From an uncultured Thermoleophilia bacterium (GTDB lineage Bacteria > Actinomycetota > Thermoleophilia > UBA2241), in NCBI GenBank assembly GCA_963791345.1, contig CAWBRS010000002.1, positions 112,037 through 176,036 of the forward strand: 64,000 nucleotides of DNA, written 5' to 3'. This document shows positions 26,878 to 49,705 of the stretch, one piece after another. How positions within the stretch are numbered: position 1 is the first letter of the stretch; every line of letters begins with the position of its first letter. A program made the translations under genes and the position numbers. Under the pieces are notes generated by a model, which was not told the DNA's origin, did no database searches, and saw only the letters and a list, made by a program, of their open reading frames with translations.

Positions 26878-27114
26878 ATGAGGCAGACCGCCACCCAGAC
26901 CGAGTCGCGCACGCTGGTCGTCACGGGCCCCGCCCGCGACCTGCTGTACGAGCACTTCAGCCGGCTGTTCTGGGGCCGCGGGGTGGTCGTCGTCAAGGAT
27001 CGCCGCGACGGCGAGCGTCGCGCCGCGCGGGCCGCCGTCTCCGACGAGCGGCGCGAGGCCGACCGCCGCCGCCGGCCCCCCGACTGGATCGTGCCCCCGC
27101 CCGACGCCGCTTGA
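26878..27114 (+). CDS. hypothetical small protein (78 aa), first ORF of the co-directional catabolic island
   Basis: ORF with an N-terminal structured-looking segment (TLVVTGPARDLLYEHFSRLFWGRGVVVVKDRRDGERR) and an Arg-rich tail; no family recognised. Confidence 0.3.
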   Translation: MRQTATQTESRTLVVTGPARDLLYEHFSRLFWGRGVVVVKDRRDGERRAARAAVSDERREADRRRRPPDWIVPPPDAA

Positions 27115-27307
27115 CGCCGGGCGCCTTCCCGCCCCGCCTAGGACCTGCCTCTGCGTCATCCGAGCCCCGTCACATCAGGACGGCGGACGCCGCGTCACGA
27201 CGCCTGACCCGAGCCGCCCCGCTGCCCCGCCTGCAGACCCCTGTCTGCCGCAGGTATACTTCACTCTCGTTCGGCCCGGATACGCGATGTGTGGAGGTAG
27301 TTGTCCT

Positions 27308-28111
27308 ATGTTCCTGATGGGCGAATCGATCAACGGCACCCGCAAGGCCGTCGGCGAGGCGATCCAGGCCCGCGATGCGGAGTTCATCAAGGCGCTTGCG
27401 CTCGAGCAGGTGGAGGCCGGCGCCGACCTCGTCGACCTCAACGGCGGCGTCGCCGGCACCGACGAGGTCGACAACCTGCTCTGGCTCGTCGACACCGTCA
27501 TGGGCGTCACCGACGCGCAGCTGATGGTCGACTCGGCAAGCCCCGAGGCGCTCGAGAAGGGCGTCCAGGCGATCATCGACAAGGGCGGCAAGGTGCCGTT
27601 CATCAACTCGATCAGCGGCGAGCAGCCGCGCATCGACGCCGTGCTGCCGCTCATCGAGAAGCACAAGTGCCCGGTGGTCGGCCTGTGCCTGAGTGACGAG
27701 GGCATCCCGGCGACGGCCGAGGACCGCTTCGCCGTCGCGCAGCGCATGTACGACCTGTGCACCGGCGCCGGTCTGCCGCCGCAGGACCTGTGGATCGACC
27801 CGCTGGTGCTGGCCGTGTCGGCCGACGCCTGCGCGGGCCAGGTCACGCTCGACACGCTCAAGCTCGTCAAGACCCGTCTCGACTGCCGCACGACCGGCGG
27901 CCTCAGCAACGTCAGCTTCGGGCTGCCGAACCGCGCCCTGCTCAACCGCGTGTTCGTGGCGATGTGCGCCGGCATCGGGCTCGACGGCACGATCGTCGAC
28001 GTGCGCAACGCGCAGATGATGGCGACGATCAAGTCGATCCGCGCGCTCAACGGCGCCGACGGCTTCTGCGGCAACTACCTCAAGGCGCACCGCGCCGGGC
28101 AGCTCGCCTAG
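27308..28111 (+). CDS. pterin-binding (MetH/MtrH/MtgA-like) methyltetrahydrofolate:corrinoid methyltransferase-family protein
   Basis: MFLMGESINGTRKAVGEAIQARDAEFIKALALEQVEAGADLVDLNGG resembles the MetH pterin-binding domain (GERxNVTGSxxF...QVExGAxxIDVN). TIM-barrel length about 267 aa. RBS GGAGG lies 9 nt upstream of ATG 27308. Confidence 0.7.
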   Translation: MFLMGESINGTRKAVGEAIQARDAEFIKALALEQVEAGADLVDLNGGVAGTDEVDNLLWLVDTVMGVTDAQLMVDSASPEALEKGVQAIIDKGGKVPFINSISGEQPRIDAVLPLIEKHKCPVVGLCLSDEGIPATAEDRFAVAQRMYDLCTGAGLPPQDLWIDPLVLAVSADACAGQVTLDTLKLVKTRLDCRTTGGLSNVSFGLPNRALLNRVFVAMCAGIGLDGTIVDVRNAQMMATIKSIRALNGADGFCGNYLKAHRAGQLA

Positions 28112-28113
28112 TC

Positions 28114-29220
28114 GTGAGTGACGGCCGCCGCGCGCGGGCGCGCGAGCTCGGCATCGAGATCGGCGTCCTGCCCACCGGGGCGCTGAACGCCGTCACCGAC
28201 GTGCCCGGCGTGCTCGTCGGTCACAGCACCGTCTCGTGGGGCGGGCCCGAGCTGCCGACCGGCAGCGGGCCCGCCCGCACGGGCGTCACCGCCGTGTTCC
28301 CGCACGGCGACGGCCTGTGGGACCGGCGGGTCGTCGCCGGCGTCTTCGCCGCCAACGGCGCCGGCGAGGTCGTCGGCAGCAGCGCGATCCGCGAGTGGGG
28401 GCTCATCGAGACCCCGGTCATGCTGACCAACTCGCAGGCGGTCGGGGCCGTCTACGACGCGACCGTGCGCTGGACGATGGAGCGCGAGCCGCGGACCGGC
28501 CTCGACGACGCCGTCATGCCCGTGGTCGGTGAGTGCGACGACGGGCTCCTCAACGACCAGCGCGGCATGCACGTGCGCGAGGAGCACGTGCGCGAGGCGC
28601 TCGACGGCGCGCGGGGCGGCGCCGTCGCCGAAGGCTGCGTCGGCGCCGGCACCGGCATGATGTGCTTCGAGTTCAAGGGCGGCATCGGCACGTCCTCGCG
28701 CCTCATCACCGTCTACGGGAGGCAGTACGCGGTCGGCGCCCTCGTGCTGACCAACTTCGGCGACCGCCGCCGTCTGGCGATCGACGGGGTGCCGGTCGGG
28801 CGCGAGATCGCCGACCTGATGCCGGTCGAGAAGCGCGAGGGTTCGTGCGTCGTCGTGCTCGCCACCGACGCGCCTTTGACCTCCCGCCAGTGCGAGCGGC
28901 TCGCCAAGCGCGCCGCTCTCGGCCTCGCCGTCTGTGGCTCCTACGCCGCCGACGGGAGCGGTGAGATCATGGTCGCCTTCTCCACCGCCCAGCACGTGCC
29001 GCGGCGGACCGCCGCTCCGCTCCGCCTCGAGACCCTCGCCAACGACGCGACGGCGGAGCTCTTCGAGGCCGCCGTCGACGCCACCGCCGAGGCCGTCGTC
29101 AACTCGCTCTGCGCCGCCGAGACCACCGTCGGGCGCGAGGGCAACACGGTGCACGCGCTGCCCCTCGACCGCATGGTCGAGGTCATGGGGCGCTACGGCC
29201 GCCCGGCCCGCCTGCCGTAG
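28114..29220 (+). CDS. dmpA: DmpA/S58-family (P1) aminopeptidase / D-aminopeptidase-esterase
   Basis: 369 aa, GIEIGVLPTGALNAVTDVPGVLVGHST...GVTAV... with the Ntn autoprocessing region ...GAGTGMMCFEFKGGIGTSSR typical of DmpA/OAT-like S58 peptidases. Confidence 0.8.
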   Translation: MSDGRRARARELGIEIGVLPTGALNAVTDVPGVLVGHSTVSWGGPELPTGSGPARTGVTAVFPHGDGLWDRRVVAGVFAANGAGEVVGSSAIREWGLIETPVMLTNSQAVGAVYDATVRWTMEREPRTGLDDAVMPVVGECDDGLLNDQRGMHVREEHVREALDGARGGAVAEGCVGAGTGMMCFEFKGGIGTSSRLITVYGRQYAVGALVLTNFGDRRRLAIDGVPVGREIADLMPVEKREGSCVVVLATDAPLTSRQCERLAKRAALGLAVCGSYAADGSGEIMVAFSTAQHVPRRTAAPLRLETLANDATAELFEAAVDATAEAVVNSLCAAETTVGREGNTVHALPLDRMVEVMGRYGRPARLP

Positions 29221-29925
29221 CGGCTGACCGCGGCGGCCCGTCGGCCGTCCACGGCCGGGCGCCCCGGGCGATGTCGCGACAGCGGGCAGCAGGTCGTTCA
29301 CCTGCCGTCGCCGCAGAGCGTGCGCCGTCTTCTTCGTGCCAGCGGCGGCTCCGGTCATGGGGAGGTGACCCGGGGCCGAACGCCGTGCGGCAGGACCGCG
29401 GGTCGCTTGCCGCTTCGGAACCGGCACGGTATAAACAGGGCGGTTCTCACACCGGCCGACGTCCGGCCCCGGTAGTGTCGGGCGTGTCGCGCAGGAGCGG
29501 GTCGCGCGGGAAGGACAGCGGTCGTCGCGTCCTCCCACGGGTCGGGTCGCGGCGGGTTCGCCGCCGCCGACCGGCGCGCCGCAGGGCGTCGCAGTGTGAG
29601 GGCCGCACGGAGGCCCGGCTCGGGCCCGCCGGGGATGGAGGGCCCCGTCGGGCGCGGTCCGGTCCGGCCTCCCGTCGTCGAGGGGAAGGAGCAGGGCACA
29701 CGTGAGGTGCGCGTCACCGCAGCACCGCGACACCCGCCCCGGGTCGTCGCCCCACGACTTCGCCGCCGTCTCACGCTCTTCGCGCACCCCGGGCGCCGGG
29801 CGAGCCGCGCCGTACGACGCCGCGGCCACCCTCCGCACCGACCGACTCTGCCAACCGCGAGCCAGTGAAGGAGGTCGGGGCCCCGGTCCGTCGCGCCGTT
29901 AGGCGGTCTGTGAGCCCGAGGAGCT

Positions 29926-30894
29926 GTGGACAAGCGACGCTACTTTGCCAAGAAGATCGCGAATGCGCTGCTGACCATCATCCTGGTCGCCTCGTTCAAC
30001 TTCGCGCTCTTCCGCATCCTCCCCGGCGACCCGGCGCGCCTGCTCCTGCCCAAGGGCAAGCAGCCGCCCGAGGCCGTCGAGAAGCAGCGCAAGACGTTCA
30101 ACCTGGACAAGCCCATGTGGCAGCAGTTCGTCTACTACTGGGGCGACACGATCCAGGGCCGCTTCGGCATGTCCTTCTCCGAGAAGCGCCCCGTCTCCGA
30201 GGTGGTGAGTGAGCGCATCTGGCCGACGGTGGTCCTGGTGGGGACGGGCACGATCATCGCCACCGGCATCGGCATCTTCACCGGCGTCTTCGCCGGCTGG
30301 CGCAGAAACAGCAAGTACGACGTGATATCGACCAACACCGGCATGGTCTTCTACGCCATGCCCACGTTCTGGTTCGGCCTCCTCACGATCATGCTCTTCT
30401 CGACCTATCTGGGGTGGTTCCCTACCGGGAGGATGTCGGAGCCGGGCGCCGACCTCACGGGGATGGAGGCCTTCGTCGACCTCATCTGGCACATGACCCT
30501 CCCCGTCCTCACCTTCGCCATCGCCTGGGTCGGTGAGTACCACCTCATCATGCGCAGCTCGATCACCGGCGTGATGAACGACGACTTCGCCCTCACCGCG
30601 CGGGCGAAGGGCCTCTCCGAGAACACGGTCCTCTGGCGGCATGTCGTGCCCAACGCGATGCTCCCGACGGTGACCATCGTGATGATGAACATCGGCTTCG
30701 TCATGTCGGGCGCGATCCTCACCGAGACGGTCTTCAACTGGCCGGGCCTCGGGCTGCTCGCCTACGAGGCGATGAACAAGCGCGACTACCCGGTCATGCA
30801 GATGGTCTTCCTCATCGCCAGCGTGGCGGTCATCGTCGCCAACCTCATCGCCGACATCACCTACTACTACCTCGACCCGCGGGTGCAGGCATGA
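29926..30894 (+). CDS. ABC transporter permease (DppB/OppB-type)
   Basis: 322 aa, 6 TM segments, binding-protein-dependent permease motif (RAKGLSENTVLWRHVVPNAMLP); intact. Confidence 0.9.
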   Translation: MDKRRYFAKKIANALLTIILVASFNFALFRILPGDPARLLLPKGKQPPEAVEKQRKTFNLDKPMWQQFVYYWGDTIQGRFGMSFSEKRPVSEVVSERIWPTVVLVGTGTIIATGIGIFTGVFAGWRRNSKYDVISTNTGMVFYAMPTFWFGLLTIMLFSTYLGWFPTGRMSEPGADLTGMEAFVDLIWHMTLPVLTFAIAWVGEYHLIMRSSITGVMNDDFALTARAKGLSENTVLWRHVVPNAMLPTVTIVMMNIGFVMSGAILTETVFNWPGLGLLAYEAMNKRDYPVMQMVFLIASVAVIVANLIADITYYYLDPRVQA

Positions 30895-32447
30895 TCCCCC
30901 GGCGCCTGAGGATGTGGATCCTCATCTGGACCCCGGCGACGGCCCTCGCCCTCAACCTCGCGACGTACCCCAAAGAGGTGCCGCTCTCGGCCGGGCTCGA
31001 GGCCGTGGTCAAGGGCTTCTTCAGCGACGAGATCGCCCTCTACCCGGCCTGGATCATGCTGGCGCTCGGGTTGGCCGTCCTCGCGCTGGGCGTGCTCGGC
31101 CTCGTCCGCCGCTCAAAGGCCCGCAGCTTCAACATCGTGCTCGTCATCGTGGCGCTCGTGCTCTTCGTCTGGGCCTACCGCGCCGGCCTCAGCGACGAGG
31201 GCTGGTCGCTCACCGGGCGCACCCCGGGCCCCGGCTGGTTCTTCCAGGCCCTGGTCGTGGCGCTGGGCGGGGTCGCGGCCTGGTTCTGGGCCGTGAGCAA
31301 CCCCGAGCGCGCCGAGCTCTTCGCCTGGAACGGGCACCAGATCTGGAAGCTCTACCGCGCCAACTGGCAGGGCATGGTCGGTCTCGGCATCCTCATCGTG
31401 TTCGGCCTCATGGCGCTGCTCGCGCCGTTCCTCGCCGACCACGCCTACCTCGACCCCAACGCCCAGGTCCGTGAGGACGGCTCGCTGACCAGCGAGGCGC
31501 CGCTCCTCGGGCCGTACCACCCGCCGACCATCGTCTACTACAACTGGTTCGGCACCGACCAGGTGGGGCAATCGGTGCTGGCCGAATTCATCTGGAGCTC
31601 GCGTATCTCACTCATGGTCGGCCTGCTCGCGACGCTGATCTCGACCTTGCTCGGCGCGGCCATCGGCATCGGCTCCGGGTACTACGGGAGCTGGCAGGGA
31701 GAGGTCGGGATGCGATTGACCGACGTGTTCCTGGTCATTCCCTGGCTGCCGCTCGCCATGGTGCTGGCGTCGGCCTGGGGTCAGAACTACTGGATGATCA
31801 TCGTCATCATCGGGATCACGAGCTGGCCGGGCACGGCGCGCGTGGTACGCGCCGACACGCTGCGCGTGCGCGAGCTGCAGTTCATCGAGCGCGCCCGGGC
31901 CATCGGCTCGGGCGACGGCCACATCATGGGCAAGCACGTGCTGCCCAACGTCTTCCCCCTGATCTTCGCCAACACCGTGCTCGTGGTGGCCATCGCCATC
32001 CTCTCCGAGACCACGCTCTCGTTCCTCGGTCTCGGCGACCCGCTCAACTTCAGCTGGGGCACGATGCTGCACTACGCCTGGGCCAACGGGGCCGCCGGCC
32101 TGCCCGCCTGGTGGTACCTGCTGCCGCCGGGCATCGCCATCATCCTCGTCGTGCTCGCCTTCACCTTCATGGGCACGGCGTTCGACGAGGTCCTCGATCC
32201 GAAGTTGCGCAAGCGCGAGGAGAGCGACACGAGCGGCCGCCGTCAGGCCGGCGAGCCGAGCGCCGTCATGGTCGCCGGTGGGGCCGGCAGCGGCGGCTCC
32301 GCGATGATCTACGAGCCGGGCCGCCAGACCGACGACGCGATGCCCGACTACGGCCGGCCGGCGCCCGGCTCCATCCGGCCGCCCGACGCCGGCGGGGGCT
32401 GGGTCGGACCGGGCATCGGGGACGACGACGAGGGAGGCGACCGATGA
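30891..32447 (+). CDS. ABC transporter permease (DppC/OppC-type) with about 150-aa extra N-terminal membrane region and acidic C-terminal tail
   Basis: 518 aa; permease signature [26 protein letters not shown]; translationally coupled on both sides. Confidence 0.9.
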
Positions 32448-33456
32448 GCGCGACCGCGACGACTCCCTCCAAGACGCCCGAACGCTTGGAGCACAAGGGC
32501 CTCCTCGAGGTCCGCGACCTGACCACGCGCTTCAAGCTCTCACAGGGCTGGGTGCGCGCGGTCGAGAAGGTCAGCTTCTGGGTCGAGCCCGGCGAGAGCC
32601 TCGGCCTCGCCGGCGAGTCGGGCTGCGGCAAGACGACCGCCGCGCTCTCGATCCTCAAGCTCCTGCCCGCGAACGGCAAGATCGTCTCGGGCGAGATCCT
32701 CTTCGACGGCAAGAACCTGGCCAAGCGCACCGAGTACGGCATGCAGAAGGTGCGCTGGAAGGAGATCTCGATGATCTTCCAGGGCGCGATGAACGCTCTG
32801 AACCCGGTGACCGAGACCGGCAAGCAGATCGCCGAGCCGATCATGCTCCACGAGGGCCTCTCCGAGAAGCAGGCCATGGTGCGCACCCGCGAGCTCTTCG
32901 ACCTCGTCGGCATCAGTACCAAGCGCGTCATGGACTTCCCCCACCAGCTCTCCGGCGGCATGCGCCAGCGGGCGATGATCGCCATGGCCCTGGCCTGCAA
33001 CCCCAAGCTCGTGATCGGCGACGAGCCGACCACCGCCTTGGACGTCATGGTGCAGGCCCAGATCCTCGAGCTCATCGAGCGCCTCAGGCGCGAGCTCGAC
33101 CTCTCCTTCATCCTGATCAGCCACGACCTCTCGGTGATGGCCGAGACCTGCGACAAGGGCGTCATCATGTACGCCGGCGAGGTCGTCGAGTCGGGCACCG
33201 TGGCCCACCTCTTCAACGACCCGCAGCACCCCTACACGCGCCAGCTCATCAAGGCCTTCCCCAACATCCACGAGCGCCGCGAGATGGTCTCCTCGATCCC
33301 GGGCGACCCGCCCAACCTCCTGGACCCGCCGCCGGGCTGCGGCTTCTCGCCGCGCTGCAACGCAAAGACCGGCGCCTGCGTGGACGATCCCGACACGGTC
33401 GAGGTGGCGCCCGGCCACTTCGTGCGCTGTCACCTGATGAAGCGGGGGGTCGCTGA
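32444..33456 (+). CDS. ABC transporter ATP-binding protein (DppD/OppD-type); frame lost at a G6 homopolymer just before the stop
   Basis: Walker [10 protein letters not shown], signature LSGGMRQR, Walker [14 protein letters not shown]-terminal oligopeptide-type domain ending ...[11 protein letters not shown]. The TGATG stop/start overlap with the next gene is only in frame if one G is added in the run at 33444-33449. Confidence 0.85.
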
Positions 33457-34565
33457 TGGCCACCGAGACCACCCCCACCGAGACCCGGGGCGGGCGCGAC
33501 GTGAGCCGCGACGGCGCCCGCGACAAGAGCCTCGCCGGGCGCATCGGCCCCGAGGACCTGGCCCGCGCCGAGGTCAGAGACGGCGTCCTCTTCGACGTCC
33601 GCGACCTGCAGGTCTTCTTCCCCATCCGCGAGGGCTTCTTCAAGAGCATGGTGCAGAAGGAGAAGCGCTACGTGAAGGCGGTCGACCACGTCTCCTTCCA
33701 GGTCAAGCAGGGCGAGATCCTCGCCCTGGTCGGCGAGTCGGGCTGCGGCAAGACGACCACCGGGCGCACCATGCTGAGGCTCGAGGAGGCGACCGGCGGC
33801 GACATCCTCTACAAGGGCCTGCCGATGCGCGCCTTCTCGGGCAAGGCGCTCAGGGAGTACCGCAAGAAGGCGCAGATCATCTTCCAGGACCCCTACAACT
33901 CGATCAATCCCAAGCAGACCATCTTCGACATCGTCGCCGAGCCCTTGGAGGTCAACGGTGTGACCTCCTCCGAGCGCGAGAAGGAGGAGCGCGTCGTCAA
34001 GGCCATCTCCGAGGCCGGCCTGCGGCCGGCGAGCGAGTACCTCTACCGCTACCCGCACGAGCTCTCCGGCGGCCAGCGGCAGCGCGTCTGCATCGCCGGC
34101 GCCACCGTGCTCGAGCCCGACATGATCGTCGCCGACGAGCCCGTCGCCTCCCTGGACGTCTCGATCCGCAACGACATCCTCAAACTCATGGTCGAGCAGA
34201 AGGACACCCTCGGCGTCACCTACCTGTTCATCACCCACGACCTCTCGCTGGCCTGGGTGATCTCCGACCGCATCGCCGTCATGTACCTGGGGCGTATCGT
34301 CGAGATCGGCGACACCGAGGAGGTCGTCGCCAACCCCAAGCACCCCTACACCAAGGCCCTGATCAGCGTGATCCCGGTGCCCGACCCGCTGGCCAAGCGC
34401 GAGCACGTGATCCTCGCCGGTGAGACCCCGAACCCGGTCGACATCCCCCCGGGCTGCCGCTTCCAGCCGCGCTGCCCCGAGGCGATCGACGCCTGCCGCG
34501 AGATCGACCCGCCCGACGTCAACGTAGGGGGCGACCACTACGCGGCCTGCATCAGGCTGAAGTGA
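33456..34565 (+). CDS. ABC transporter ATP-binding protein (DppF/OppF-type)
   Basis: 369 aa, [30 protein letters not shown]-terminal Cys motif; intact. Confidence 0.9.
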
Positions 34566-36040
34566 GGCCGCTCCTCGACCTGTGGCCCGACGAGGCCATC
34601 GAGGCCATGCACGGGGCCTCGCTGGTCCTCCTCGAACAAGCCGGGGTGCGGGTCGAGTCGCCGACCGCCCGGGACGCGCTGGTCGCAGCCGGCTGCACTG
34701 CCGAGGGCGAGCGCGTGCGCGTGCCGGCGACGATGGTCGACGAGGCCGTCGCCGCCTGCCCGCGCGCCTTCGTCCTTGCCGCGCGCGACCCCGAGCGCTC
34801 GCTGGCCGTCGACGGCGAGCCGGGCGTCACCTACGTGCACAACATGGGCGGGGCGCGCGACGTCGCCGACGCGCGCAGCGGCGCCGGGCGCCGGGCGACG
34901 CTGCGCGACCAGGTCGAGCTGACGCGGGTCATGCACCACCTGCCGCGCCAGCACATGATCACCTCGCTGGTGCAGCCCGGCGACGTGCCCGACGAGCTCG
35001 AGCCGCTCTACTCGTATCTGGTGCTCGCCAACGAGACCGACAAGTCGGTCGGCGGGCCCGGCGTGTCGCACCCGTTCCAGGCCCGGTACCTGCAGGAGAT
35101 GGCCGTCGCCCTGACCGGGGCCGACGGCGGGGGCGGGGTGTACCCCGTCGACCTCGCCTTCTCGCCGGTCAGCCCGCTCACCCTGGGCGGCGAGGTCACC
35201 GACGCCCTCGTCGCGCAGGTGCGGCGCGGCGGCTTCGTGGTCGAGATCCTGCCCTGCCCGGCGATCGCCACGACGGCGCCGGGCTCGCTCGCGGGGGCCG
35301 TCGCCCAGCAGAACGCCGAGGTGCTGGCCGGCGTCGTCCTCACGCAGGTCGTCGCGCCCGGGACGCCGGTGTACTACGGCCCCCGGCTGAGCGCGGTCGA
35401 CCCGCGCACCGGCGTCGTGGTCTCGGGCACCCCCGAGACCGGCATCGCCTCCATGGCGGCGACGCTGCTGGCGCGGCGCTACGGCCTCGCCTGCGACTGC
35501 TACGGACCGACGAGCGACAGCAAGGTGGTCGACGCCCAGTTCGGTCTCGAGACGGCGCTCAACGCACTGCTGGGCATCGCCGCCGCGCCGCGCTTCCTCT
35601 CCGGCGTGGGCGACATCCAGGCCGGCGTCGCGAGCTGCGCCGAGGCACTGGTCGTGGACGACGAGGTCCTCAACTACGTCTTTTACGCGCGCACGCCGCG
35701 GCCCTGGGATGCCGACGCCCTCGACGTCGAGGCAATGGTCGACGGTGTCCTCTCCGGCCGCGGCTTCCTCGGCACGAAGCACACGCGGCGTTACATCCGC
35801 AGCGAGTTCTGCACCCCCGAGATCGGCTACCGCGGCGGTCTCAACGACTGGCTGGCCGGTGGCCGCGCCGGCCTCGTCGACCTGGCGCGCGAGCGCGCCA
35901 CCGAGCTCGTCGCGCGCGAGCCGGTCGGCCTGCCCGGCGACATCGCCGCCGCCCTCTGCGGGCTCATCGACGCCGCCGCGCGCGAGGTCGGGCTCACCGA
36001 GTGGCCGGACCCGCGCCGCATCGTGGAGCCGCCGGGGTGA
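34562..36040 (+). CDS. trimethylamine methyltransferase (MttB) superfamily, non-pyrrolysine member (quaternary-amine:corrinoid methyltransferase-like)
   Basis: 492 aa; N-terminal LLDLWPDEAIEAMHGASLVLLEQAGVRVES, then the family signature ATTAPGSLAGAVAQQNAEVLAGVVLTQVVAPGTPVYYG; no in-frame amber codon. Confidence 0.8.
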   Translation: MRPLLDLWPDEAIEAMHGASLVLLEQAGVRVESPTARDALVAAGCTAEGERVRVPATMVDEAVAACPRAFVLAARDPERSLAVDGEPGVTYVHNMGGARDVADARSGAGRRATLRDQVELTRVMHHLPRQHMITSLVQPGDVPDELEPLYSYLVLANETDKSVGGPGVSHPFQARYLQEMAVALTGADGGGGVYPVDLAFSPVSPLTLGGEVTDALVAQVRRGGFVVEILPCPAIATTAPGSLAGAVAQQNAEVLAGVVLTQVVAPGTPVYYGPRLSAVDPRTGVVVSGTPETGIASMAATLLARRYGLACDCYGPTSDSKVVDAQFGLETALNALLGIAAAPRFLSGVGDIQAGVASCAEALVVDDEVLNYVFYARTPRPWDADALDVEAMVDGVLSGRGFLGTKHTRRYIRSEFCTPEIGYRGGLNDWLAGGRAGLVDLARERATELVAREPVGLPGDIAAALCGLIDAAAREVGLTEWPDPRRIVEPPG

Positions 36041-37121
36041 GCATCCCCTTCCCGCACATCGTGGCGCAGGGGAGCCACCGCGAGCTGGGCCGCGCCGTCG
36101 GCGAGGGTGCCCGCGAGCAGATCGCCGCCGCCATCGCCTTCTACGAGGAGCACTTCACGGCGATGGCCGGCATCCCGTTCGCCGAGGCCGAGTGCCAGAG
36201 CCTCGAGTACCTGCCGTATGTGAAGCGCTACCTGCCGCAGTACGTCGAGGAGCTCGAGGGGATGGCCGAGGCCGCCGGCCTGCCCTTCGTCAAGCTGCTC
36301 GTGCCGAACTGCGCCGAGGAGTTCACGCCTGCCCGACCGACGCCGACACGCAGCGTTCGCCGCACGGTGGGGCGCACGCCTGCACAGGCGTCGCGGTCAG
36401 CCACGCAGGTCGGCACGTCGTCGGCCACAACATGGACTGGTACGTGGTCGACGTCGACAAGAACGTGCTCTTCGACCTCACCACCCCCGACGGCACCCGC
36501 ATCGTCACCATCGCCGGGGTGCCGTACCTGCCCATCCTCGGGCTGAACTCGCACGGCGTGGCCTGCGTCGGCAACTCGGTGTACTCCAACGACAATCGCC
36601 ACGGCGTGCCCAACGTCTTCGTCCGCCGCTGGGTGCTCGAGGCGCCCTCCCTCGAAGAGGCGGTCGCGCGCGCCTGCTTCCCGGTGCGCGCGCGCGGCAC
36701 GAACTACACGTTCGCCGACGTCGAGGGCCGCCTCTGGGACCTCGAGACCTCGGCGTACGCCGCCGCCCTCATCGAGGGCGACGCGACGCTCGCCCACACG
36801 AACCACTACGTGCACCCGGCGATGACCGCCTTCGAGGGCTACCACAACGAGGAGTCGCGTCACCGCCTGCGGGTCGCCGAGGACGAGCTGGCCGCCGGGG
36901 TGGCGCGCGGCGAGGACGCGCGCGACCTCGTCGCGCGCGTCCTCCTCAACCACGACGGCGGCCACGACGCGATCTGCGGCCACCCCGACGAGGCCCTCCC
37001 GGTGGCCGACCAGGTCATGACCGTGGCGAGCCTGATCTGCGACCTGGATTCCCTGCGCGTCGAGGCCTGCGCGGGGCTGCCCTGCGAGAACGAGTACCGC
37101 ACGTTCGAGGCCGGCGCCTGA
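36037..37121 (+). CDS. C45-family (acyl-CoA:6-aminopenicillanic-acid acyltransferase-like) Ntn hydrolase/acyltransferase; one frameshift near 36330
   Basis: VSIPFPHIVAQGSHRELGRAVGE...LLVPNCAEEF in frame 1 joins frame 0 ...HACTGVAVSHAGRHVVGHNMDW...LGLNSHGVACVGNSV... (C45 precursor with Cys nucleophile before GHNxDW). Confidence 0.7.
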
Positions 37122-38764
37122 TGGCCGTCCACGACCTCGTCCTCGCCGGCGGCCGCGTGGTGGACGGCTGCGGCAACCCCTGGTACCACGGCGACGTCGC
37201 CGTCCGCGGCCGCCGGATCGCGGCCATCGGCGCGCCGGGCACGCTGCGCGGCCGACGCACGATCGACGCCGGCGGCCGCTACGTGACGCCCGGCTTCGTC
37301 GACCCGCACACGCACTCCGACGTCTCCATCCTCGCCTACCCGCGCGCCGACTCGGCCGTCCGCCAGGGCGTCACCACCCACGTCACCGGCAACTGCGGCA
37401 TGGGGGCGGCGCCCATCGTGGCGCGCTTCAGGGACGAGCTGCGGCGCGAGTGGGACTACTACTGGGGGGCGCAGGTGTCGTGGGGGTGGCGCAGCTTCGC
37501 CGGCTACCTGCGGGCGATCGAGGCGCAAGGCACGGCGATCAACATCGCGCCGCTGGTCGGGCACGGCGCTCTGCGCATCGGCGCGATGGGCCTCGCCGAG
37601 CGCGCCGTGACTCCGAAGGAGCTCGATGCGATGCGCCGGCTGCTCGACGCCAGCTTGCGCGCCGGCGCCCACGGCCTCTCGACCGGCCTGGTCTACCCGC
37701 CGGGGTGCTTCGCCGACACGGCTGAGATCGTCGCCCTGTGCGAGGTGGTCGCGCGCTACCACGGCATCTACGCCTCGCATATCCGCGGCGAGCGCGAGAC
37801 CGTCATGGAGGCGGTCGCCGAGGCGATCGCCATCGGGCGCGCCGCCGGCGTGCCGGTCGAGGTCTCCCACAACGCGCCCAAGTGGGGGGCGCCTGAGGAG
37901 TCGCGGGGCAACCTCGACCTCGCCGACGCCGCGCGTCGCGAGGGCCACGACGTGACCGTCGACAACGACATGCACACCGAGCTCGCGCCGCGCATGTCGC
38001 GCGCCCTTCCGCAGCCGCTGCTCGACCTGCCGCACGAGCGCCTGATGACGCTCCTCGCCGACCGCCGCGAGCGCGCGAACGTGCGCCGCGCCTGTGAGAC
38101 CGACGAGCTCCCCGGTCCCGGCTACGCCGGTCTCGTGAAGCACGGCCGCTTCGAGCGGATCTGGGTCCTGCACGCCCCGCGTCACCCGGAGCTGCGCGGG
38201 CAGACCGTCGCCGCCATCGCCGAGGCACGCGGCGCCGACCCCTTCGACACCTTCCTCGACCTCATCGTCGAGGAGGACGACCGTATCGTCGGCATCTTCG
38301 AGTACATCGCCGGGTCCGAGATCCGCCGCCTGCTCGCCCACCCGCTGGTCATGGCCTGTTCGGACGGTCTCGTGATGCCGCCGGCGGAGGAGCTCGAGGG
38401 CACCGAGATGTACTGGCCCTGCAGCTACGGCGAGTACCCGGGCATCCTCGAGCGCTACGTGCGCGACGAGCCGCTGCTGCGCCTCGAGGAGGCGATCCGC
38501 AAGATGACCTCCTTCCCGGCGCAGCGTTTCGGGCTGCACGACCGCGGGGTGCTGCGGCCCGGGCTGGCCGCCGACGTCGTGGTCTTCGACCTCGAGCGCC
38601 TGCGCGACCGGGCCACGAACCCCTGGCCGCACCGATTCCCCTTCGAGAACGTCCCCCACGGCTACCCCGAGGGCATCGACGTCGTCCTCGTCAACGGGGC
38701 GGTCGTCGTCGACGGGGGCGAGCACACGGGGGCGCTCCCCGGGCGCGTCCTGCGCCGGCGCTGA
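37121..38764 (+). CDS. N-acyl-D-amino-acid deacylase (D-aminoacylase) family amidohydrolase
   Basis: 547 aa, DLVLAGGRVVDG...TPGFVDPHTHSD metal-binding HxH, ...HNAPKWG..., C-terminal beta-sandwich; intact. Confidence 0.85.
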   Translation: MAVHDLVLAGGRVVDGCGNPWYHGDVAVRGRRIAAIGAPGTLRGRRTIDAGGRYVTPGFVDPHTHSDVSILAYPRADSAVRQGVTTHVTGNCGMGAAPIVARFRDELRREWDYYWGAQVSWGWRSFAGYLRAIEAQGTAINIAPLVGHGALRIGAMGLAERAVTPKELDAMRRLLDASLRAGAHGLSTGLVYPPGCFADTAEIVALCEVVARYHGIYASHIRGERETVMEAVAEAIAIGRAAGVPVEVSHNAPKWGAPEESRGNLDLADAARREGHDVTVDNDMHTELAPRMSRALPQPLLDLPHERLMTLLADRRERANVRRACETDELPGPGYAGLVKHGRFERIWVLHAPRHPELRGQTVAAIAEARGADPFDTFLDLIVEEDDRIVGIFEYIAGSEIRRLLAHPLVMACSDGLVMPPAEELEGTEMYWPCSYGEYPGILERYVRDEPLLRLEEAIRKMTSFPAQRFGLHDRGVLRPGLAADVVVFDLERLRDRATNPWPHRFPFENVPHGYPEGIDVVLVNGAVVVDGGEHTGALPGRVLRRR

Positions 38765-39065
38765 CCCGCAGCGCCGCTCGCGGGCCCTCGATCCGAGCCG
38801 CCGCTCGCCACCGCCGGCCCACTCTGCCTGCTGCCGCCCGCGGCCGCCGATCGTCGTCGCCCGCCCCGCCGATCGCCTCCCACGCGGCTACCGTCGTCGC
38901 CCGCCCACTGCCACGTGACATCGCGTCCAACCGTGGGCCATCGTGGCCAGACGTCGACCGCCGCGGTGCTCCAATTGCACTTGGACATCGTGTAGAGTGG
39001 CGGAGCCTGCGGCAGGAGTCGCGGGCCTCGCTCACCACGATTCGAGAAAGGCAGGGAGAAGGCCC

Positions 39066-40238
39066 ATGGCAGCAGACCCCACGACCTACGACATCGAGCT
39101 CGAGCACGTCACCAAGCGTTTCGGCGACTTCACCGCCGTGAAGGAGATGGACCTCAAGATCCGCAAGGGCGAGTTCTTCTCCCTGCTCGGCCCGTCGGGG
39201 TGCGGCAAGACCACGACGCTGCGCATGGTGGCCGGCTTCGAGCAGCCTACGGAGGGCGAGATCTACCTCGGCAACGCCCCGGTCGCCGGCGTGCCGCCCT
39301 ACAAGCGCAACGTCAACACCGTGTTCCAGAACTACGCCCTCTTCCCGCACCTCTCTGTCTGGGAGAACGTCGCCTTCGGCCTCAAGCGCAAGAAGGTCGA
39401 GAAGGACGAGATGACGCAGCGCGTCGGCGAGGCCCTCGAGATGGTCGAGATGGACCAGATGCAGGACCGCAAGCCGCATCAGCTCTCCGGCGGCCAGCAG
39501 CAGCGCGTCGCGCTCGCGCGGGCCCTCGTCAACCGCCCCATGGTCCTGCTCCTCGACGAGCCGCTCGGGGCCCTCGACGCCAAGCTGCGCAAGGCGATGC
39601 AGCTCGAGCTCAAGAAGCTGCAGAGCGAGGTCGGCATCACCTTCATCTACGTCACGCACGACCAGGAGGAGGCGCTCACCATGAGCGACCGCCTCGCCGT
39701 GATGAGCCAGGGGCTCGTCGAGCAGGTCGGCTCGCCCGCCGACATCTACGAGAACCCGCAGTCGGCCTTCGTGGCCAACTTCATCGGCGTCTCCAACATC
39801 TACCTCTCCGACGTCGTCAGGGTCGACGGCGAGATCGCCGAGTGCCGCACCGACAAGGGCCTCGGGGTGAGGGTGCTGGTCCGCGGTCACGACACGCGCG
39901 CCGGGCAGAAGGTCGGCGTCGTGATCAGGCCCGAGAAGATCTCGATCACCCCCGCCGACGAGGCCGACGAGGTCGCCGACCGCGAGAACATCTACGACGG
40001 CGTCATCAAGGCGGTCGTCTACATCGGCTCGGTGACGCAGTTCATCGTCGACGTCGAGGAGGGCAAGCACCTCGCCCAGGTGCTCTACCAGAACCTCTAC
40101 CACACCGACCGCAAGGAGTGGCACGCCGGCCAGCAGGTCAAGATCGCCTTCTGGAAGGACAGCTGCTCCGTCATCACCGACGTCGACAAGGGCATGGCCG
40201 AGAAGGACCTCATGGGCGAGGTCGTCAGGCGTATGTGA
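39066..40238 (+). CDS. PotA-type (spermidine/putrescine-like) ABC transporter ATP-binding protein with C-terminal TOBE domain; no adjacent permease or binding protein
   Basis: 390 aa, [12 protein letters not shown]-loop, LSGGQQQRVALARAL, LLLDEPLGALD, TOBE-like C-terminal domain; intact. Confidence 0.85.
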   Translation: MAADPTTYDIELEHVTKRFGDFTAVKEMDLKIRKGEFFSLLGPSGCGKTTTLRMVAGFEQPTEGEIYLGNAPVAGVPPYKRNVNTVFQNYALFPHLSVWENVAFGLKRKKVEKDEMTQRVGEALEMVEMDQMQDRKPHQLSGGQQQRVALARALVNRPMVLLLDEPLGALDAKLRKAMQLELKKLQSEVGITFIYVTHDQEEALTMSDRLAVMSQGLVEQVGSPADIYENPQSAFVANFIGVSNIYLSDVVRVDGEIAECRTDKGLGVRVLVRGHDTRAGQKVGVVIRPEKISITPADEADEVADRENIYDGVIKAVVYIGSVTQFIVDVEEGKHLAQVLYQNLYHTDRKEWHAGQQVKIAFWKDSCSVITDVDKGMAEKDLMGEVVRRM

Positions 40239-40327
40239 CGGGTGGTGGCCGGGCGCCGCTCCGCGGCGCCCGGCCACCAGACGCGGACGAACGTGACCGG
40301 CCGGGCCGGTCGCCGAGGCAGGGCGCG

Positions 40328-41980
40328 ATGATCACGGTGCAGGACATCCTCGAGATCCCCGACCTGAACCTGCGGCTGCTCGCCGGCGGCAAGTCGACGA
40401 GCAACCCGGTGCGCTGGGTCCACATCACCGAGGTGCCCGACCCGACGCGCTGGCTCCGCGGCGGCGAGCTGCTGCTGACCACGGGCTACGGCTTCGTCGG
40501 CCCCGAGGACCGGCAGCTCGCCCAGCTCAAGCAGCTGATCGACCACAACATCTCGGGGCTCGGCTTCGGCACCGGCTTCAGCTTCGAGAAGGTCCCGGAG
40601 TGCCTCGTGCGGCTGGCCGACGAGTACGGCTTCCCGCTCTTCGAGGTGCCCTACCACGTGCCGTTCATCGCCATCACCGAGGCGGTGGCCTCGAAGATCG
40701 TCAACGAGCAGTACGCACTCCTCCAGCGCAGCCTCGCGGTGCACGAGAAGCTCACCAAGATCGTGCTCGAGGAGAAGGGCCTCGAGGCGATCCTCTCGAC
40801 GCTCTCGGCCCTCGTCGGCTGCTGTGCCGTGCTCTTCGACTTCCACGGTGTGGTGCTCGGCGAGGCCGCCTACCGGCGGCACCTCGGCGCCGAGGTGGTC
40901 ACCGACCTCTGGCGGCACATCTCCGACCACCGCGCCGACCGCCAGGACTTCCGGCTCGCCGTCGACGGCGTCGGCGCGGGGGTGCAGGTCTACCCCGTCG
41001 TCGCCTCGCATCGCATCGGCGCCTTCCTCGCCGTGGTCAAGGACTCGGGCGACTTCTCGGACTACGACCGCATCATCCTGCACCATGTGGTCACCGTGAC
41101 CGCCCTCGAGCTGGTCAAGAAGAAAGCGGTCGCCGAGACCGAGAAGCGGCTCGCCGGCGACTTCTTCGACGAGCTCATCGCCAGCGACCTCTACGAAGAG
41201 GAGATCGCTCGCCGGCTCGTCTTCTTCGGCCTGGACCCTGAGGCCGAGCACCTGATCCTCCTGGTCGACATCGACGGGCTCCCGGCCGCGGGCGACGGCG
41301 AGCGCGAGCGGGGGGCGCTGCAGGACGTCAAGGAGCGCCTGCACTGGGCGGTCGACGAGTTCATGGCCAGGCGCGAGCTGCTCTTCATCTCGGCCTCGCG
41401 CAGCGACTCGGTCGTCGTCCTCGTGCAGCCCGCCCGCGCCGAGGGCGGCGAGATCCTGGCGATGGCCGGGGAGCTGCAGGCGACGATCGACCGCATGCTG
41501 CCCGACATCACCGTGTCCATCGGCATCGGGCGCCCGCACCGCCCCCTGGTCGACCTGCGGCAGAGCTTCTACGAAGCGCACTACGCGATCAAGATCCGCC
41601 GCCTCAAGGAGACCGGGAGGGTCATCGCCAGCTTCGACGACCTGGGCTCGTACGGTCTGCTGCTCGGCCTGCAGGACACGCTGTCGCTCGAGGTCTTCTA
41701 CGACAGCGTCCTCGGCCGGCTCCAGGAATACGATCGGCAGAACTCGAGCGACCTCGTCAAGAGCGTCGCCTGCTTCCTCGAGGCGAACGGCCATTGGGGT
41801 GACGCCGCCGAGAAGCTGTATGTGCACCGCCACACCCTTCGCTACCGGATGAAGCGCGTGGAGGAGATCACCGGCCGCAGCCTCGACGACTCTCAGGACC
41901 GCATGGAGTTCTGGCTCGCGCTGAAGGCCAGGGACCTCATCGAGCAGTCGCGCAAGGGCACGGTCCCGCCGCAGTCCTGA
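40328..41980 (+). CDS. PucR/CdaR-family transcriptional regulator
   Basis: 550 aa; N-terminal PucR-type ligand domain (MITVQDILEIPDLNLRLLAGG...), GGDEF-like middle region, C-terminal HTH (LYVHRHTLRYRMKRVEEITG). Confidence 0.8.
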   Translation: MITVQDILEIPDLNLRLLAGGKSTSNPVRWVHITEVPDPTRWLRGGELLLTTGYGFVGPEDRQLAQLKQLIDHNISGLGFGTGFSFEKVPECLVRLADEYGFPLFEVPYHVPFIAITEAVASKIVNEQYALLQRSLAVHEKLTKIVLEEKGLEAILSTLSALVGCCAVLFDFHGVVLGEAAYRRHLGAEVVTDLWRHISDHRADRQDFRLAVDGVGAGVQVYPVVASHRIGAFLAVVKDSGDFSDYDRIILHHVVTVTALELVKKKAVAETEKRLAGDFFDELIASDLYEEEIARRLVFFGLDPEAEHLILLVDIDGLPAAGDGERERGALQDVKERLHWAVDEFMARRELLFISASRSDSVVVLVQPARAEGGEILAMAGELQATIDRMLPDITVSIGIGRPHRPLVDLRQSFYEAHYAIKIRRLKETGRVIASFDDLGSYGLLLGLQDTLSLEVFYDSVLGRLQEYDRQNSSDLVKSVACFLEANGHWGDAAEKLYVHRHTLRYRMKRVEEITGRSLDDSQDRMEFWLALKARDLIEQSRKGTVPPQS

Positions 41981-42019: not shown

Positions 42020-42775
42020 CTACGACGTGACGAGCGCCCCCCCGTCGACGATCACGTTGACGCCCGTCACGGCGTCGTTCTCCAGGCAGAAGCGCACGCC
42101 GGCCGCGACCTGGGCGGGGGTGACGAGGCGCCCGCCGGCGCCGCGCGCCGCCGTCCGCAGGGCTGCGTCGCGGCGCTCGTCGTCGGGCAGGTCGACGGGC
42201 CCGGGGGCGACGCCGCAGACACGCACGCCGTCGGGCGCCCAGGCTCGCGCCAGCATCTTCACGAGGTGGATCTGGGCGGCCTTCGCCGCCCCGTGCGCGG
42301 CGAAGGCCGCCCACGCCTGGATGCCGAGGAGGTCGGTCACGGCGACGATCACGCCGCGCGTCGCCGCCGCGGTCTCGCCCGCCTCGCGCACCATCACGTC
42401 GCGCGCCGCGCAGGCGGTGAAGAAGAAGCCCCGGGCGACGACGTCGAACGAGGCGTCCCAGGCCGCGCCGTCGATCTCCTGCGGCGGCGTGGGCACGAAC
42501 GCGCCGCTGGCCGTGTAGAGGACGGCGTCGAGGCCGCCGAGCGCCGCGGCCGCCGCGGCGACGGCCGCGCGCGCGCCGTCGGCGGTCGACGTGTCGGCCG
42601 CCAGCGCGACGACCTGCGGCGGCCGCCCCAGAGCGGCAGCCGCGCGCTCGGCGTCGTCGGCATCTCGTGAGGTCAGGGCCACGCGGGCCCCGGCGACGAC
42701 CAGGTCGGCGGCGAGCGGTCGCCCGAGGCGCCGGGCGCCGCCGACCACGAGACAGCGGGCGCCGGGCAGTCTCAT
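42020..42775 (-). CDS. SDR-family short-chain dehydrogenase/reductase
   Basis: 251 aa from ATG (rev) 42773-42775: CLVVGGARRLGRPLA (TGxxxGxG-like), catalytic-region NAAK-like AHGAAKAA, C-terminal VNVIVDGG. Confidence 0.8.
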   Translation of the reverse strand: MRLPGARCLVVGGARRLGRPLAADLVVAGARVALTSRDADDAERAAAALGRPPQVVALAADTSTADGARAAVAAAAAALGGLDAVLYTASGAFVPTPPQEIDGAAWDASFDVVARGFFFTACAARDVMVREAGETAAATRGVIVAVTDLLGIQAWAAFAAHGAAKAAQIHLVKMLARAWAPDGVRVCGVAPGPVDLPDDERRDAALRTAARGAGGRLVTPAQVAAGVRFCLENDAVTGVNVIVDGGALVTS

Positions 42776-43866: not shown

Positions 43867-43970
43867 CCCGGCGACTCCCTCGTTCGGCTGTGGTAAATAT
43901 AGAGCAGCCGCCCCGGCGGCAGCCATACGGCGCCGTGGGGCGTACCTCGAGCCGAGTCCGGAGGTGGGTC

Positions 43971-44468
43971 GTGGCACGCGACGTCGACGCGCTCGACAAG
44001 GGTCTCATCGCCGGCCTGATCGCGGACGGGAGGATGACGCTGTCCGGGCTCGCCCGGCGGACGGGGGTCTCACGCCCGACGACGACGGCGCGCCTGAGCG
44101 CGCTCACGCGCGACGGCGTCGTGCGCGTCGCCGGCGTCATCGACGCCTTCCGGGTGCCGGGCCTCACCGTCGCGCTCGTCGGGCTCACGGTGGACAAGCA
44201 CCGGCTGGACGAGAAGGTCGAGCAGATCGCCGACCTCCCCGAGGTCACGTGGGCCGCCGTCGTGACGGGCCGCTACGACATCCTGACCGAGGTCGTGACG
44301 GAGGACGGCGTCAACGGCCTCTACGACTTCCTCAACGTCTCACTGCGCGCGGTCGGAGGCATCAACGCCAGCGAGATGTTCGTGGTCATGAAGTCCCGGC
44401 GCCGCTGGATCGTCCCGCCCGCGTCACTGCGACGGACGTGGTCCGCGGGCGGGCCGGGGAGCGGATGA
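43971..44468 (+). CDS. lrp: Lrp/AsnC-family transcriptional regulator
   Basis: LDKGLIAGLIADGRMTLSGLARRTGVSRPTTTARL (HTH), then an RAM domain; sits immediately upstream of ald. Confidence 0.75.
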   Translation: MARDVDALDKGLIAGLIADGRMTLSGLARRTGVSRPTTTARLSALTRDGVVRVAGVIDAFRVPGLTVALVGLTVDKHRLDEKVEQIADLPEVTWAAVVTGRYDILTEVVTEDGVNGLYDFLNVSLRAVGGINASEMFVVMKSRRRWIVPPASLRRTWSAGGPGSG

Positions 44469-44649
44469 GGGCCGGTCAGCGGATGAGGGCCTGTGAGCGA
44501 GTCGGCTTTCCACTTCGTGCATTTGACACCCATCACGCTTGTCAAGTGAGGATGCCTTTGCCGGATTCCGTCGTTAGAATGGTAACCCGCACCGTGAGTG
44601 CCACCGTGCCCAAGCAGCCGTCATTCGGGAAGTGGAACGAGGAGGAACG

Positions 44650-45768
<1,119 letters not shown>

Positions 45769-45867
45769 GGCCTGCCGGCGCCGCCCGGTTGGACAAAGCG
45801 CTGGCCGCGAGGGCCAATCGGGTACGTCGGGGACAGTAGAGCGCCCGGGCGCAATCTGCCACAATGA

Positions 45868-49621: not shown

Positions 49622-49698
<77 letters not shown>

Positions 49699-49705
49699 AG
49701 CCTTC

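Follow-up and report, generated by a model that had tools for sequence, protein, structure and literature searches.

The window examined in this study is a stretch of 64,000 nucleotides from an uncultured Thermoleophilia bacterium (contig CAWBRS010000002.1 of assembly GCA_963791345.1), which has a G+C content of approximately 72% and possesses eleven named genes between positions 27308 and 41980, every one of them on the plus strand. These genes code for a non-pyrrolysine methyltransferase of the MttB superfamily (methyltransferase 1, MT1), a pterin-binding methyltransferase (methyltransferase 2, MT2), an importer of the oligopeptide/dipeptide (Opp/Dpp) family, three hydrolases, an additional ATPase and a transcriptional regulator. 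The best explanation is that they constitute a conserved catabolic locus of uncultured Thermoleophilia, which consists of two adjacent transcription units and a regulator. Given the high G+C content of the window, genes were called on third-position GC (GC3), and their identities were assigned by Pfam, NCBIfam and PDB sequence searches, which confirmed at the same positions all the genes named in an initial annotation of this DNA. The features are as follows.

26878-27114, plus strand: Arg-rich open reading frame (ORF) of 78 amino acids with high GC3, conserved, directly upstream of the Pterin_bind gene
27308-28111, plus strand: MT2-type methyltetrahydrofolate (methyl-THF):corrinoid methyltransferase (Pterin_bind, MeTr/AcsE/MtgA-like; PF00809, E = 1.2e-21)
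28114-29220, plus strand: S58 N-terminal nucleophile (Ntn) aminopeptidase, DmpA/BapA/D-aminopeptidase-like (PF03576, E = 1.7e-114)
29221-29925: non-coding gap of 705 bp with no coding signal
29926-30894, plus strand: OppB-like permease of the Opp/Dpp family (PF00528, PF19300; the NCBIfam Opp/Nik/Dpp B models all score below their cut-offs)
30891-32447, plus strand: OppC-like permease of the Opp/Dpp family with a long N-terminal extension (PF00528, PF12911)
32444 to approximately 33457, plus strand: OppD-like ATPase, stop codon missing (PF00005, PF08352)
33456-34565, plus strand: OppF-like ATPase (PF00005, PF08352)
34562-36040, plus strand: non-pyrrolysine MttB-superfamily methyltransferase, MT1 (PF06253, E = 1.6e-75)
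36037-37121, plus strand: C45 autoproteolytic Ntn acyltransferase/hydrolase, frameshifted (PF03417 on the joined translation)
37121-38764, plus strand: N-acyl-D-amino-acid deacylase-type amidohydrolase, hereafter D-aminoacylase (PF07969)
39066-40238, plus strand: PotA-type ATP-binding cassette (ABC) ATPase with a TOBE domain, a variable accessory (PF00005, PF08402)
40328-41980, plus strand: PucR-family transcriptional regulator, at the end of the locus (PF07905, PF17853, PF13556)

The initial annotation had described a one-strand, translationally coupled island, and the gene boundaries bear this out. The locus has six overlaps of a stop with the next start. Overlaps of 4 nt occur between OppB and OppC, OppC and OppD, OppF and MttB, and MttB and C45, the C45 and D-aminoacylase genes overlap by 1 nt, and the Pterin_bind and S58 genes are separated by a 2-nt spacer. 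The overlaps form a chain from OppB through D-aminoacylase, with MttB in the middle. Because gaps of 705, 301 and 89 bp interrupt the locus, its layout suggests a division into Pterin_bind-S58 (possibly preceded by the small ORF), OppBCDF-MttB-C45-D-aminoacylase, PotA and PucR. Scans for sigma-70 promoters and intrinsic terminators were uninformative, giving 0 and 1 matches in comparison with shuffle means of 0.4 and 3.0, respectively.

Residues 3-471 of the MttB homologue align with positions 29-494 of the 500 in PF06253, which places the protein within the superfamily. It is not of the pyrrolysine type: its ORF has no in-frame stop, and its score with TIGR02369 is 260 bits against a cut-off of 525. 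Thr317 aligns with the pyrrolysine position of 7XCL (Pyl334, where an in-frame UAG would mark that type). The protein is 28% identical to MtgB from Desulfitobacterium hafniense (168 bits) and gives lower scores with pyrrolysine-type MttB and 4YYC. A 2026 study defined the betaine site of MtgB as Tyr97, Arg312, His348 and Phe356, of which Tyr97 and Phe356 form an aromatic pair; Arg312 forms a salt bridge with the acid group of the substrate and is reported to be shared by every member with a known function, and these members are without exception acidic-quaternary-amine enzymes (PMC13080624). In the MttB homologue, Arg312 is replaced by Asp, His348 by Ser (Ser347) and Phe356 by Gly (Gly355), and these replacements are invariant in the window, in 76 orthologues and in three paralogues, with concordant HMMER and MAFFT alignments at the three sites. 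Tyr97 is not conserved; one aligner pairs it with Met95 and the other with Gly97. Pyrrolysine-type MttB carries Tyr at the position of Arg312.

The clade that contains the MttB homologue is narrow, as an exhaustive search of 1.84 billion cluster representatives found the next clusters at 55, 50, 48, 46 and 44% identity, followed by those at 38% or less. Among the 119 nearest full-length representatives, the residue at position 312 is Asp or Asn in 58 and Arg in 10, and the Asp/Asn-312 group usually also has His93, Tyr314 and Ser347-Gly348. To judge from these alignments, the protein is not an MtgB-type enzyme and is a member of a large, uncharacterised Asp/Asn-312 subgroup. The initial annotation had called for its placement relative to the characterised clades, and it falls outside them, with the glycine-betaine-binding residues replaced. 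Since Asp takes the place of the acid-binding Arg, the pocket predicts a substrate without an acid group, and an acidic betaine is probably not the substrate.

The residues that flank Asp312 raise a different reading, in which MttB would be a Zn-dependent enzyme with a non-amine methyl donor or acceptor (a thioether or thiol) and would hold the metal through Cys232 and Cys311-x-Cys313. Zn sites are used by MetE, MtaA and MetH. The three cysteines are invariant or nearly so in the 76 orthologues (one Chloroflexota protein has Ser311) and invariant in the three paralogues. However, both flanking cysteines occur in just three of the 119 nearest representatives, whereas His93, Asp/Asn312, Tyr314 and Ser347-Gly348 are widely conserved. 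With the cysteines confined to the closest relatives, we downgraded the Zn site, and a Zn-dependent function of this kind is very improbable.

The Pterin_bind protein reaches 285 bits with NF005719, a model for methyl-THF:corrinoid/Fe-S protein methyltransferases with a cut-off of 259, and its top PDB matches are 4O0Q, 2YCI and 2E7F. Of a three-component methyl-transfer system, MT1 and MT2 are both present by sequence. The initial annotation had stated that no B12-binding protein is encoded in the window, and this holds. A scan of the window for DxHxxG...SxL...GG detected nothing in a coding frame. As a probe we used the B12-binding domain of Escherichia coli MetH, which matches 1BMT at 258 bits and recovers MtaC, MttC, MtmC and other corrinoid proteins in the PDB; a phmmer search with it against the six-frame ORFs of the window and 82 loci gave no match at E≤10. 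The absence extends to the flanks of 77 orthologous loci, in which no B12-binding domain was found within 10 kb on either side as far as the contigs reach, and the Pfam tables for the relatives L001-L005 contain no PF02310. Pfam annotation of the genes at 21.8-47.8 kb and of L001-L005 revealed no RamA-type activase, and none was seen when the outer window was inspected by eye.

The initial annotation had treated the lack of a corrinoid protein as an anomaly, a judgement that loses its force in the light of two observations. In Eubacterium limosum, several MttB-family enzymes share the corrinoid protein MtqC and the MT2 MtqA (PMC12155760). In addition, when the MetH probe was applied to seven further, more distant loci of the Asp/Asn-312 subgroup, it detected exactly the two Pfam-annotated corrinoid proteins of L086 (E of 1e-15 to 1e-17) and nothing more. 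Both lie directly upstream of an Asp-312 MttB gene, and this gene order shows that the subgroup presumably works with corrinoid proteins. Corrinoid machinery is also plausible in genomes such as the present one, because the expression of mtxB genes, including those of the pyrrolysine type, has been reported for such Actinobacteriota in anoxic peat (PMC10805028).

The same observations bear on a corrinoid-protein-independent route, in which the methyl group would pass through a free or directly bound cobamide or straight to tetrahydrofolate (THF). The lack of a B12-binding domain in the window and around the 77 loci agrees with such a route, as does the unusual arrangement of an MT2 that adjoins an MT1 without a corrinoid protein, and free cob(I)alamin can serve MtgB as methyl acceptor in vitro (assay in PMC13080624). 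However, the MttB members characterised so far all work with a corrinoid protein (PMC13080624, PMC12155760), shared and distally encoded corrinoid proteins are known, the MT2 exceeds the NCBIfam cut-off of a family that acts on corrinoid proteins, and the Asp-312 member of L086 adjoins two of them. We therefore consider this route quite improbable.

The importer has the composition of the Opp/Dpp family, with two BPD_transp_1 permeases and two ATPases that carry the oligo_HPY C-terminal region. A family-5 substrate-binding protein (SBP) is absent from the window (tblastn with two SBPs from related loci, best E of 0.44), and the binding protein for the importer must be encoded elsewhere in the genome. 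A comparison of the SBPs with solved structures and NCBIfam models gave no specificity beyond generic family-5 similarity (AppA, NikA and Opp4A). As for the hydrolases, the S58 protein matches 2DRH (324 bits), DmpA (1B65, 260 bits) and BapA (3N2W, 242 bits) over the full length of the S58 fold. The frame-joined translation of C45 scores 195 bits with NF040521 (cut-off 85) and retains the cysteine of the 'HA|CTG' motif, the presumed nucleophile after the pro-segment. The D-aminoacylase matches 1M7J (244 bits) and 3GIP (227 bits) and contains the HxH and GNCG (bridging Cys) motifs; it reaches no NCBIfam equivalog cut-off and by similarity qualifies as a putative N-acyl-D-amino-acid deacylase. 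The PotA-type ATPase scores 395 bits with TIGR01187 (cut-off 356).

Two of these genes are defective as assembled. In OppD, a 1-nt indel within a run of G near 33446 has removed the stop codon, as revealed by alignment to L001, which keeps the stop, and C45 switches frame near 36325-36345. Single-base frame breaks are, however, numerous across the housekeeping genes of the window: FtsH (52646-53752), FolP (dihydropteroate synthase, 54886-55717), LysS (61722-63121) and alanine racemase (Alr, 3318-4524) are all split across reading frames, and the Pfam match of FolP is interrupted at profile position 168/169, exactly where the frame changes. The window therefore carries assembly indels and stems from an indel-prone, probably long-read assembly, and frame defects alone should not be taken as biology. 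The indel in OppD is a probable assembly error, and the lost stop of OppD and the frameshift of C45 together are most likely assembly indels. With FtsH, FolP, LysS and Alr equally frameshifted, we judged it unlikely that OppD and C45 are real pseudogenes.

If the lesions and the missing binding protein were nevertheless real, the locus would be decaying and nonfunctional in this organism. The two reading-frame defects, the absence of an SBP from the window and a deletion relative to L001 at 29221-29403 are compatible with decay. On the other hand, essential genes of the same window are broken likewise, the relatives come from long-read metagenome-assembled genomes (MAGs), GC3 remains at least 0.9 through both defective genes, the genes are intact in L002, L004 and L005 (C45 included), and the loss of the SBP is common to L006 and 11 other loci that span the region. 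Decay is thus improbable.

The deletion falls within the 705-bp gap between S58 and OppB. In L001, a 92%-identical relative, an insert of 4.1 kb (L001 positions 594-4723) occupies the site of the gap (29221-29925) and codes for a BetI-type TetR regulator (PF13977; the top NCBIfam model is BetI, below its cut-off), a family-5 binding protein and an M55 DppA-like D-aminopeptidase (148 bits against a cut-off of 430). The 3' 520 nt of the gap match the leader upstream of OppB in L001, L006 and L007 at approximately 85-87%, and the gap is probably a deletion scar followed by an operon leader, as far as these alignments tell. We considered whether it is a relic of the SBP, TetR or M55 gene and rejected the idea, since tblastn found nothing and the 3' 520 nt resemble the conserved intergenic leader. 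We likewise rejected the presence of a riboswitch or another structured RNA, whether within the gap or ahead of the pterin gene: Rfam searches of both regions, at the gathering thresholds and at E≤1, gave chance-level matches only, and there was no excess of RNA structure (fold z-score of +1.45).

The 77 orthologous loci were obtained from a scan of one genome per species and annotated by tblastn with the island proteins. Nearly all derive from MAGs of uncultured Thermoleophilia, other Actinomycetota and Chloroflexota from soils, peat, lakes and sediments; they include the MAG UBA2241, whose name serves a GTDB order of anoxic-habitat Thermoleophilia (PMC7438021), and L006, a Thermoleophilia MAG of the Microflora Danica set whose MttB is 95% identical to that of the window. 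The following counts refer to 39 species-level genomes of Actinomycetota in which a contig spans the region from Pterin_bind to PucR.

Pterin_bind: 39 of 39
MttB: 39 of 39
PucR: 39 of 39, by construction of the set; also present in L001-L005, always at the locus end
OppB, OppC, OppD and OppF: 38 of 39
C45: 38 of 39
S58: 34 of 39
D-aminoacylase: 29 of 39 (absent from 10)
Family-5 SBP: 27 of 39
PotA: 5 of 39

The membership of the island as first annotated is thus only partly sustained. C45 belongs to it in nearly all the spanning loci, S58 and D-aminoacylase are not universal, and PotA is not a core member. The SBP gene occupies one of three positions, namely before OppB (L001, with the BetI-type TetR and the M55 D-aminopeptidase), between OppF and MttB (most loci), or between D-aminoacylase and PotA. 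Homologues of the 78-aa ORF, at the start of which (26878) the initial annotation had begun the island while leaving the ORF itself undescribed, hold the same position in related loci (47 six-frame matches; tblastn matches in 17 of the 39 spanning loci). The ORF matches no Pfam family, and its consensus is approximately LVVTGPxRDxLYExFxxLFxGRxDVxVxKDRRxGERR...ERRxxERR...PxWIVP.

Conservation of the neighbourhood, which the initial annotation had proposed as a check, was found in every Actinomycetota relative examined; the Chloroflexota orthologues, in contrast, are mostly solitary with unrelated neighbours. In 11 of 12 Chloroflexota loci (64-69% identity) no partner gene is present, and the neighbours are variable (histidine kinase, MFS, Na/H exchanger, sulfate permease, VIT1 and HAD genes). 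L038 alone among these has an AsnC regulator and an adjacent, convergent SBP_bac_5-OppBCDF operon. Moreover, the flanks are syntenic across all the Actinomycetota loci as well (GroEL, aldehyde dehydrogenase, short-chain dehydrogenase/reductase (SDR), class-A beta-lactamase-like protein, AsnC, alanine dehydrogenase and aldehyde:ferredoxin oxidoreductase (AFOR)), and conservation within this lineage is therefore partly plain vertical inheritance and not independent evidence of function.

These features allow the main rival explanation, a composite locus in which the methyl-transfer module and a module for scavenging D- or beta-peptides act on different compounds and are neighbours through old synteny and shared regulation. 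The syntenic flanks and the solitary Chloroflexota orthologues point in this direction. So does the Thermoleophilia locus L053, which retains Pterin_bind-SBP-MttB-PucR only, without permeases or hydrolases, and the presence of S58, D-aminoacylase and PotA varies between loci. Taken by themselves, the peptide genes are similar to the dpp operon of Bacillus subtilis, and L001 has the M55 D-aminopeptidase of the DppA type. However, MttB lies in mid-operon, joined by 4-nt overlaps to both OppF and C45, and distant paralogues show the same combination of families, assembled on at least two further independent occasions (L088 and L089). Relatives of MttB also stand beside Opp and family-5 SBP genes and other peptidases in L083, L086 and L087. 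A composite locus is accordingly a possible but less favoured explanation.

The recurrences were seen among the seven more distant subgroup members that we inspected, which are 29-37% identical to the window MttB and have the following gene contexts.

L083: SBP_bac_5-OppB-OppC-MttB
L084 (Ca. Formimonas warabiya): MttB-amidohydrolase-SSF
L085 (Anaerolineae): a nitrilase-family gene, and a FolC-like gene overlapping MttB
L086: PocR/AraC regulator, two corrinoid proteins, MttB, MttB, M19 dipeptidase, alanine racemase, MttB, SSF transporter
L087: SBP_bac_5-OppBCDF, divergent from an M14 peptidase-MttB pair
L088: S58-OppFDCB-SBP_bac_5-PF00144 hydrolase, divergent from MttB-C45-DUF2817
L089: DUF2817-C45, divergent from MttB

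L088 (ERZ25039603 contig_288) comes from the same MAG as L001. Because its proteins are just 31-54% identical to those of the island, the combination of MttB, C45, S58 and Opp has been assembled or kept at least twice independently. Such recurrences are the strongest evidence that the methyltransferase and peptide genes belong together, and they lend support to the idea of one functional unit in the initial annotation, as distant paralogues lie beside Opp/SBP_bac_5 genes and C45, S58, M14, M19 and DUF2817 genes. The binding protein gene of L088 is in three pieces in its assembly. In L085 (6607-9398), MttB overlaps the stop of the gene of the folylpolyglutamate synthase (FolC-like) family, a link to folate with no corrinoid protein nearby.

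Taken together, we favour the reading that the locus serves corrinoid-dependent methyl harvesting from an imported methylammonium compound that is peptide-like and non-acidic, and that the gene for the corrinoid protein lies elsewhere, although we regard the case for it as evenly balanced. According to this scheme, the Opp/Dpp-family importer would take up a small peptide-like or amide-linked nitrogen compound with the aid of a binding protein encoded elsewhere, and the S58 and C45 Ntn hydrolases and the D-aminoacylase-type amidohydrolase would cleave it, in an order and at bonds that we infer. MttB would then demethylate a methylammonium group, either on the compound itself or on one of its fragments, and load the methyl onto the Co(I) of the distally encoded corrinoid protein, a step suggested by family membership, by L086 and by the shared MtqC/MtqA of E. 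limosum. The adjacent MeTr-like MT2 would hand the methyl group to THF, and PucR would control expression. The host Thermoleophilia are probably anaerobic.

Several observations weigh against this scheme. OppD and C45 are defective as assembled, the 64-kb window lacks a family-5 SBP, and neither a corrinoid protein nor an activase was found in the 64 kb of this genome that were covered. L053 keeps the methyltransferases without the permeases and hydrolases, 11 of the 12 Chloroflexota orthologues lack every partner gene, and the conservation within Actinomycetota partly reflects vertical inheritance. What the analysis shows are the identities of the genes, the layout of the operon, the conservation of the locus, the replaced pocket residues, the recurrent association of MttB with Opp and peptidase genes and the lack of a corrinoid gene nearby. 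The direction of methyl flow, the dependence on a corrinoid, the action of all the parts on one compound and the nature of that compound are inferred, and the substrate that the initial annotation envisaged, an N-methylated and/or D-residue peptide or a betaine, is likewise conjectural.

A more far-reaching proposal, which we put forward tentatively and consider unlikely at present, is that the Asp/Asn-312 subgroup as a whole consists of demethylases that depend on a corrinoid and act on methylammonium groups bound to peptides or linked through amides. The substrates may be N-terminally methylated or betainylated peptides, betaine amides or betaine esters. Asp or Asn would face an amide in place of the carboxylate, and the changes from His to Ser and from Phe to Gly would enlarge the pocket for the rest of the molecule. 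Opp importers, together with S58, C45, M14/DUF2817, M19 and D-aminoacylase enzymes, would deliver and dismantle the substrate.

Comparison with described systems places each part of the locus. The MtgB/MtgC/MtgA system of D. hafniense (PDB 2QNE and 9YCE) likewise combines a non-pyrrolysine MttB-fold MT1 with a MeTr-type pterin-binding MT2, and the presumed direction, from methylammonium to methyl-THF, is alike. The present locus differs in the low identity to MtgB, the replaced betaine-binding residues, the lack of an adjacent corrinoid gene and the operon of Opp importer and hydrolase genes. In E. limosum, the dispersed MT1 genes for MtpB, MtcB and MtyB rely on a corrinoid protein encoded elsewhere, and in the MthB/MthC/MthA/MthK choline cluster a kinase makes the true substrate of MT1, which is a precedent for cluster-encoded processing enzymes (PMC12155760). 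The E. limosum systems differ from the present one in that their substrates are acidic and Arg312 is kept (PMC13080624). There the MT2 travels with the corrinoid protein and not with the MT1, and there is no linkage to peptidases or Opp genes.

The peptide genes have their own counterparts. In B. subtilis dpp (DppA, an M55 D-aminopeptidase, with DppBCDE), an importer is likewise co-transcribed with D-stereospecific peptide hydrolase genes; that operon has no methyltransferases, whereas the hydrolases here are S58, C45 and D-aminoacylase-type enzymes and the window has no binding protein. The S58 protein resembles DmpA from Ochrobactrum anthropi and the BapA beta-peptidyl aminopeptidases over its full length, but its top match is an uncharacterised Pyrococcus 'D-aminopeptidase' (2DRH), and an MT2 partner 2 nt away has not been described for such enzymes. 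The D-aminoacylase shares its metal-site motifs with the enzymes from Alcaligenes (1M7J) and Bordetella (N-acyl-D-Glu deacylase, 3GIP).

All the parts hence belong to known families, and MT1, MT2 and the logic of a shared corrinoid protein are known. The novelty lies in a subgroup with the swap of Arg to Asp or Asn, in the recurrent association of that subgroup with Opp importers and unusual peptidases, and in an MT2 that accompanies the MT1 without a corrinoid protein. The initial annotation had not recognised the combination as a described pathway, in agreement with the literature searched, in which trimethylamine-methyltransferase homologues are not linked with D-aminopeptidase, D-aminoacylase, DmpA or oligopeptide transport, and Thermoleophilia appear together with the MttB family in a single paper.

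The MttB superfamily has thousands of members and, to judge from the literature considered here, approximately half a dozen known substrates, all of which are trimethylamine or acidic quaternary amines, and specialists describe the discovery of further functions as an open need (PMC12155760, PMC10805028). The locus offers a handle on a large subgroup, with the Arg312-to-Asp/Asn swap as a diagnostic feature and an operon that suggests which enzymes and which transporter family may be its partners, and the independent recurrences indicate that the partnership is no accident of one lineage. Together they point to an undescribed form of methyl harvesting from peptide-like compounds. Should a peptide-linked or otherwise non-acidic methylamine prove to be the substrate, corrinoid methyltransferases would have a wider chemistry, and the uncultured Thermoleophilia that abound in wet soils, peat and sediments would draw one-carbon (C1) units from necromass or osmolytes by a route that competes with methylotrophic methanogens. 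The demethylase proposal, if true, would introduce a novel class of substrates, and in anoxic soils and sediments peptide-like matter would feed methyl-THF by a novel route.

Additional features were observed in the locus and around it. PotA usually works with PotBCD; in L016, L021, L052 and L072, the PotA-type ATPase, located between D-aminoacylase and PucR, is preceded by a family-5 binding protein, an odd pairing. In L036, L037 and L080, the interval from the D-aminoacylase/Opp genes to PucR holds a second MttB paralogue (54-55% identity), and those of L036 and L037 have their own family-5 binding protein, at the place of PotA in the window. The downstream flank (42020-47750), kept in nearly all the Actinomycetota relatives, contains SDR and class-A beta-lactamase-like genes on the minus strand, an AsnC-type regulator, alanine dehydrogenase and a tungsten-type AFOR, the last of which, as a predicted function, suggests an anaerobic lifestyle.

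In the outer window, the region 49700-51460, between a tRNA gene (49622-49695) and HPRT (51471-52010), has no convincing gene call; it holds a weak minus-strand ORF of 537 codons and may represent another frameshifted gene. A run of short ORFs on the plus strand (8617-11728) appears by eye to code for secreted proteins of the TasA/camelysin type and a signal-peptidase-like protein, and several of them seem to be frameshifted. Finally, a minus-strand gene at 11784-13088 codes for a domain of the hexulose-phosphate-synthase/orotidine monophosphate (OMP)-decarboxylase family fused to an RraA-like aldolase domain, which may bear on C1 or pentose metabolism.

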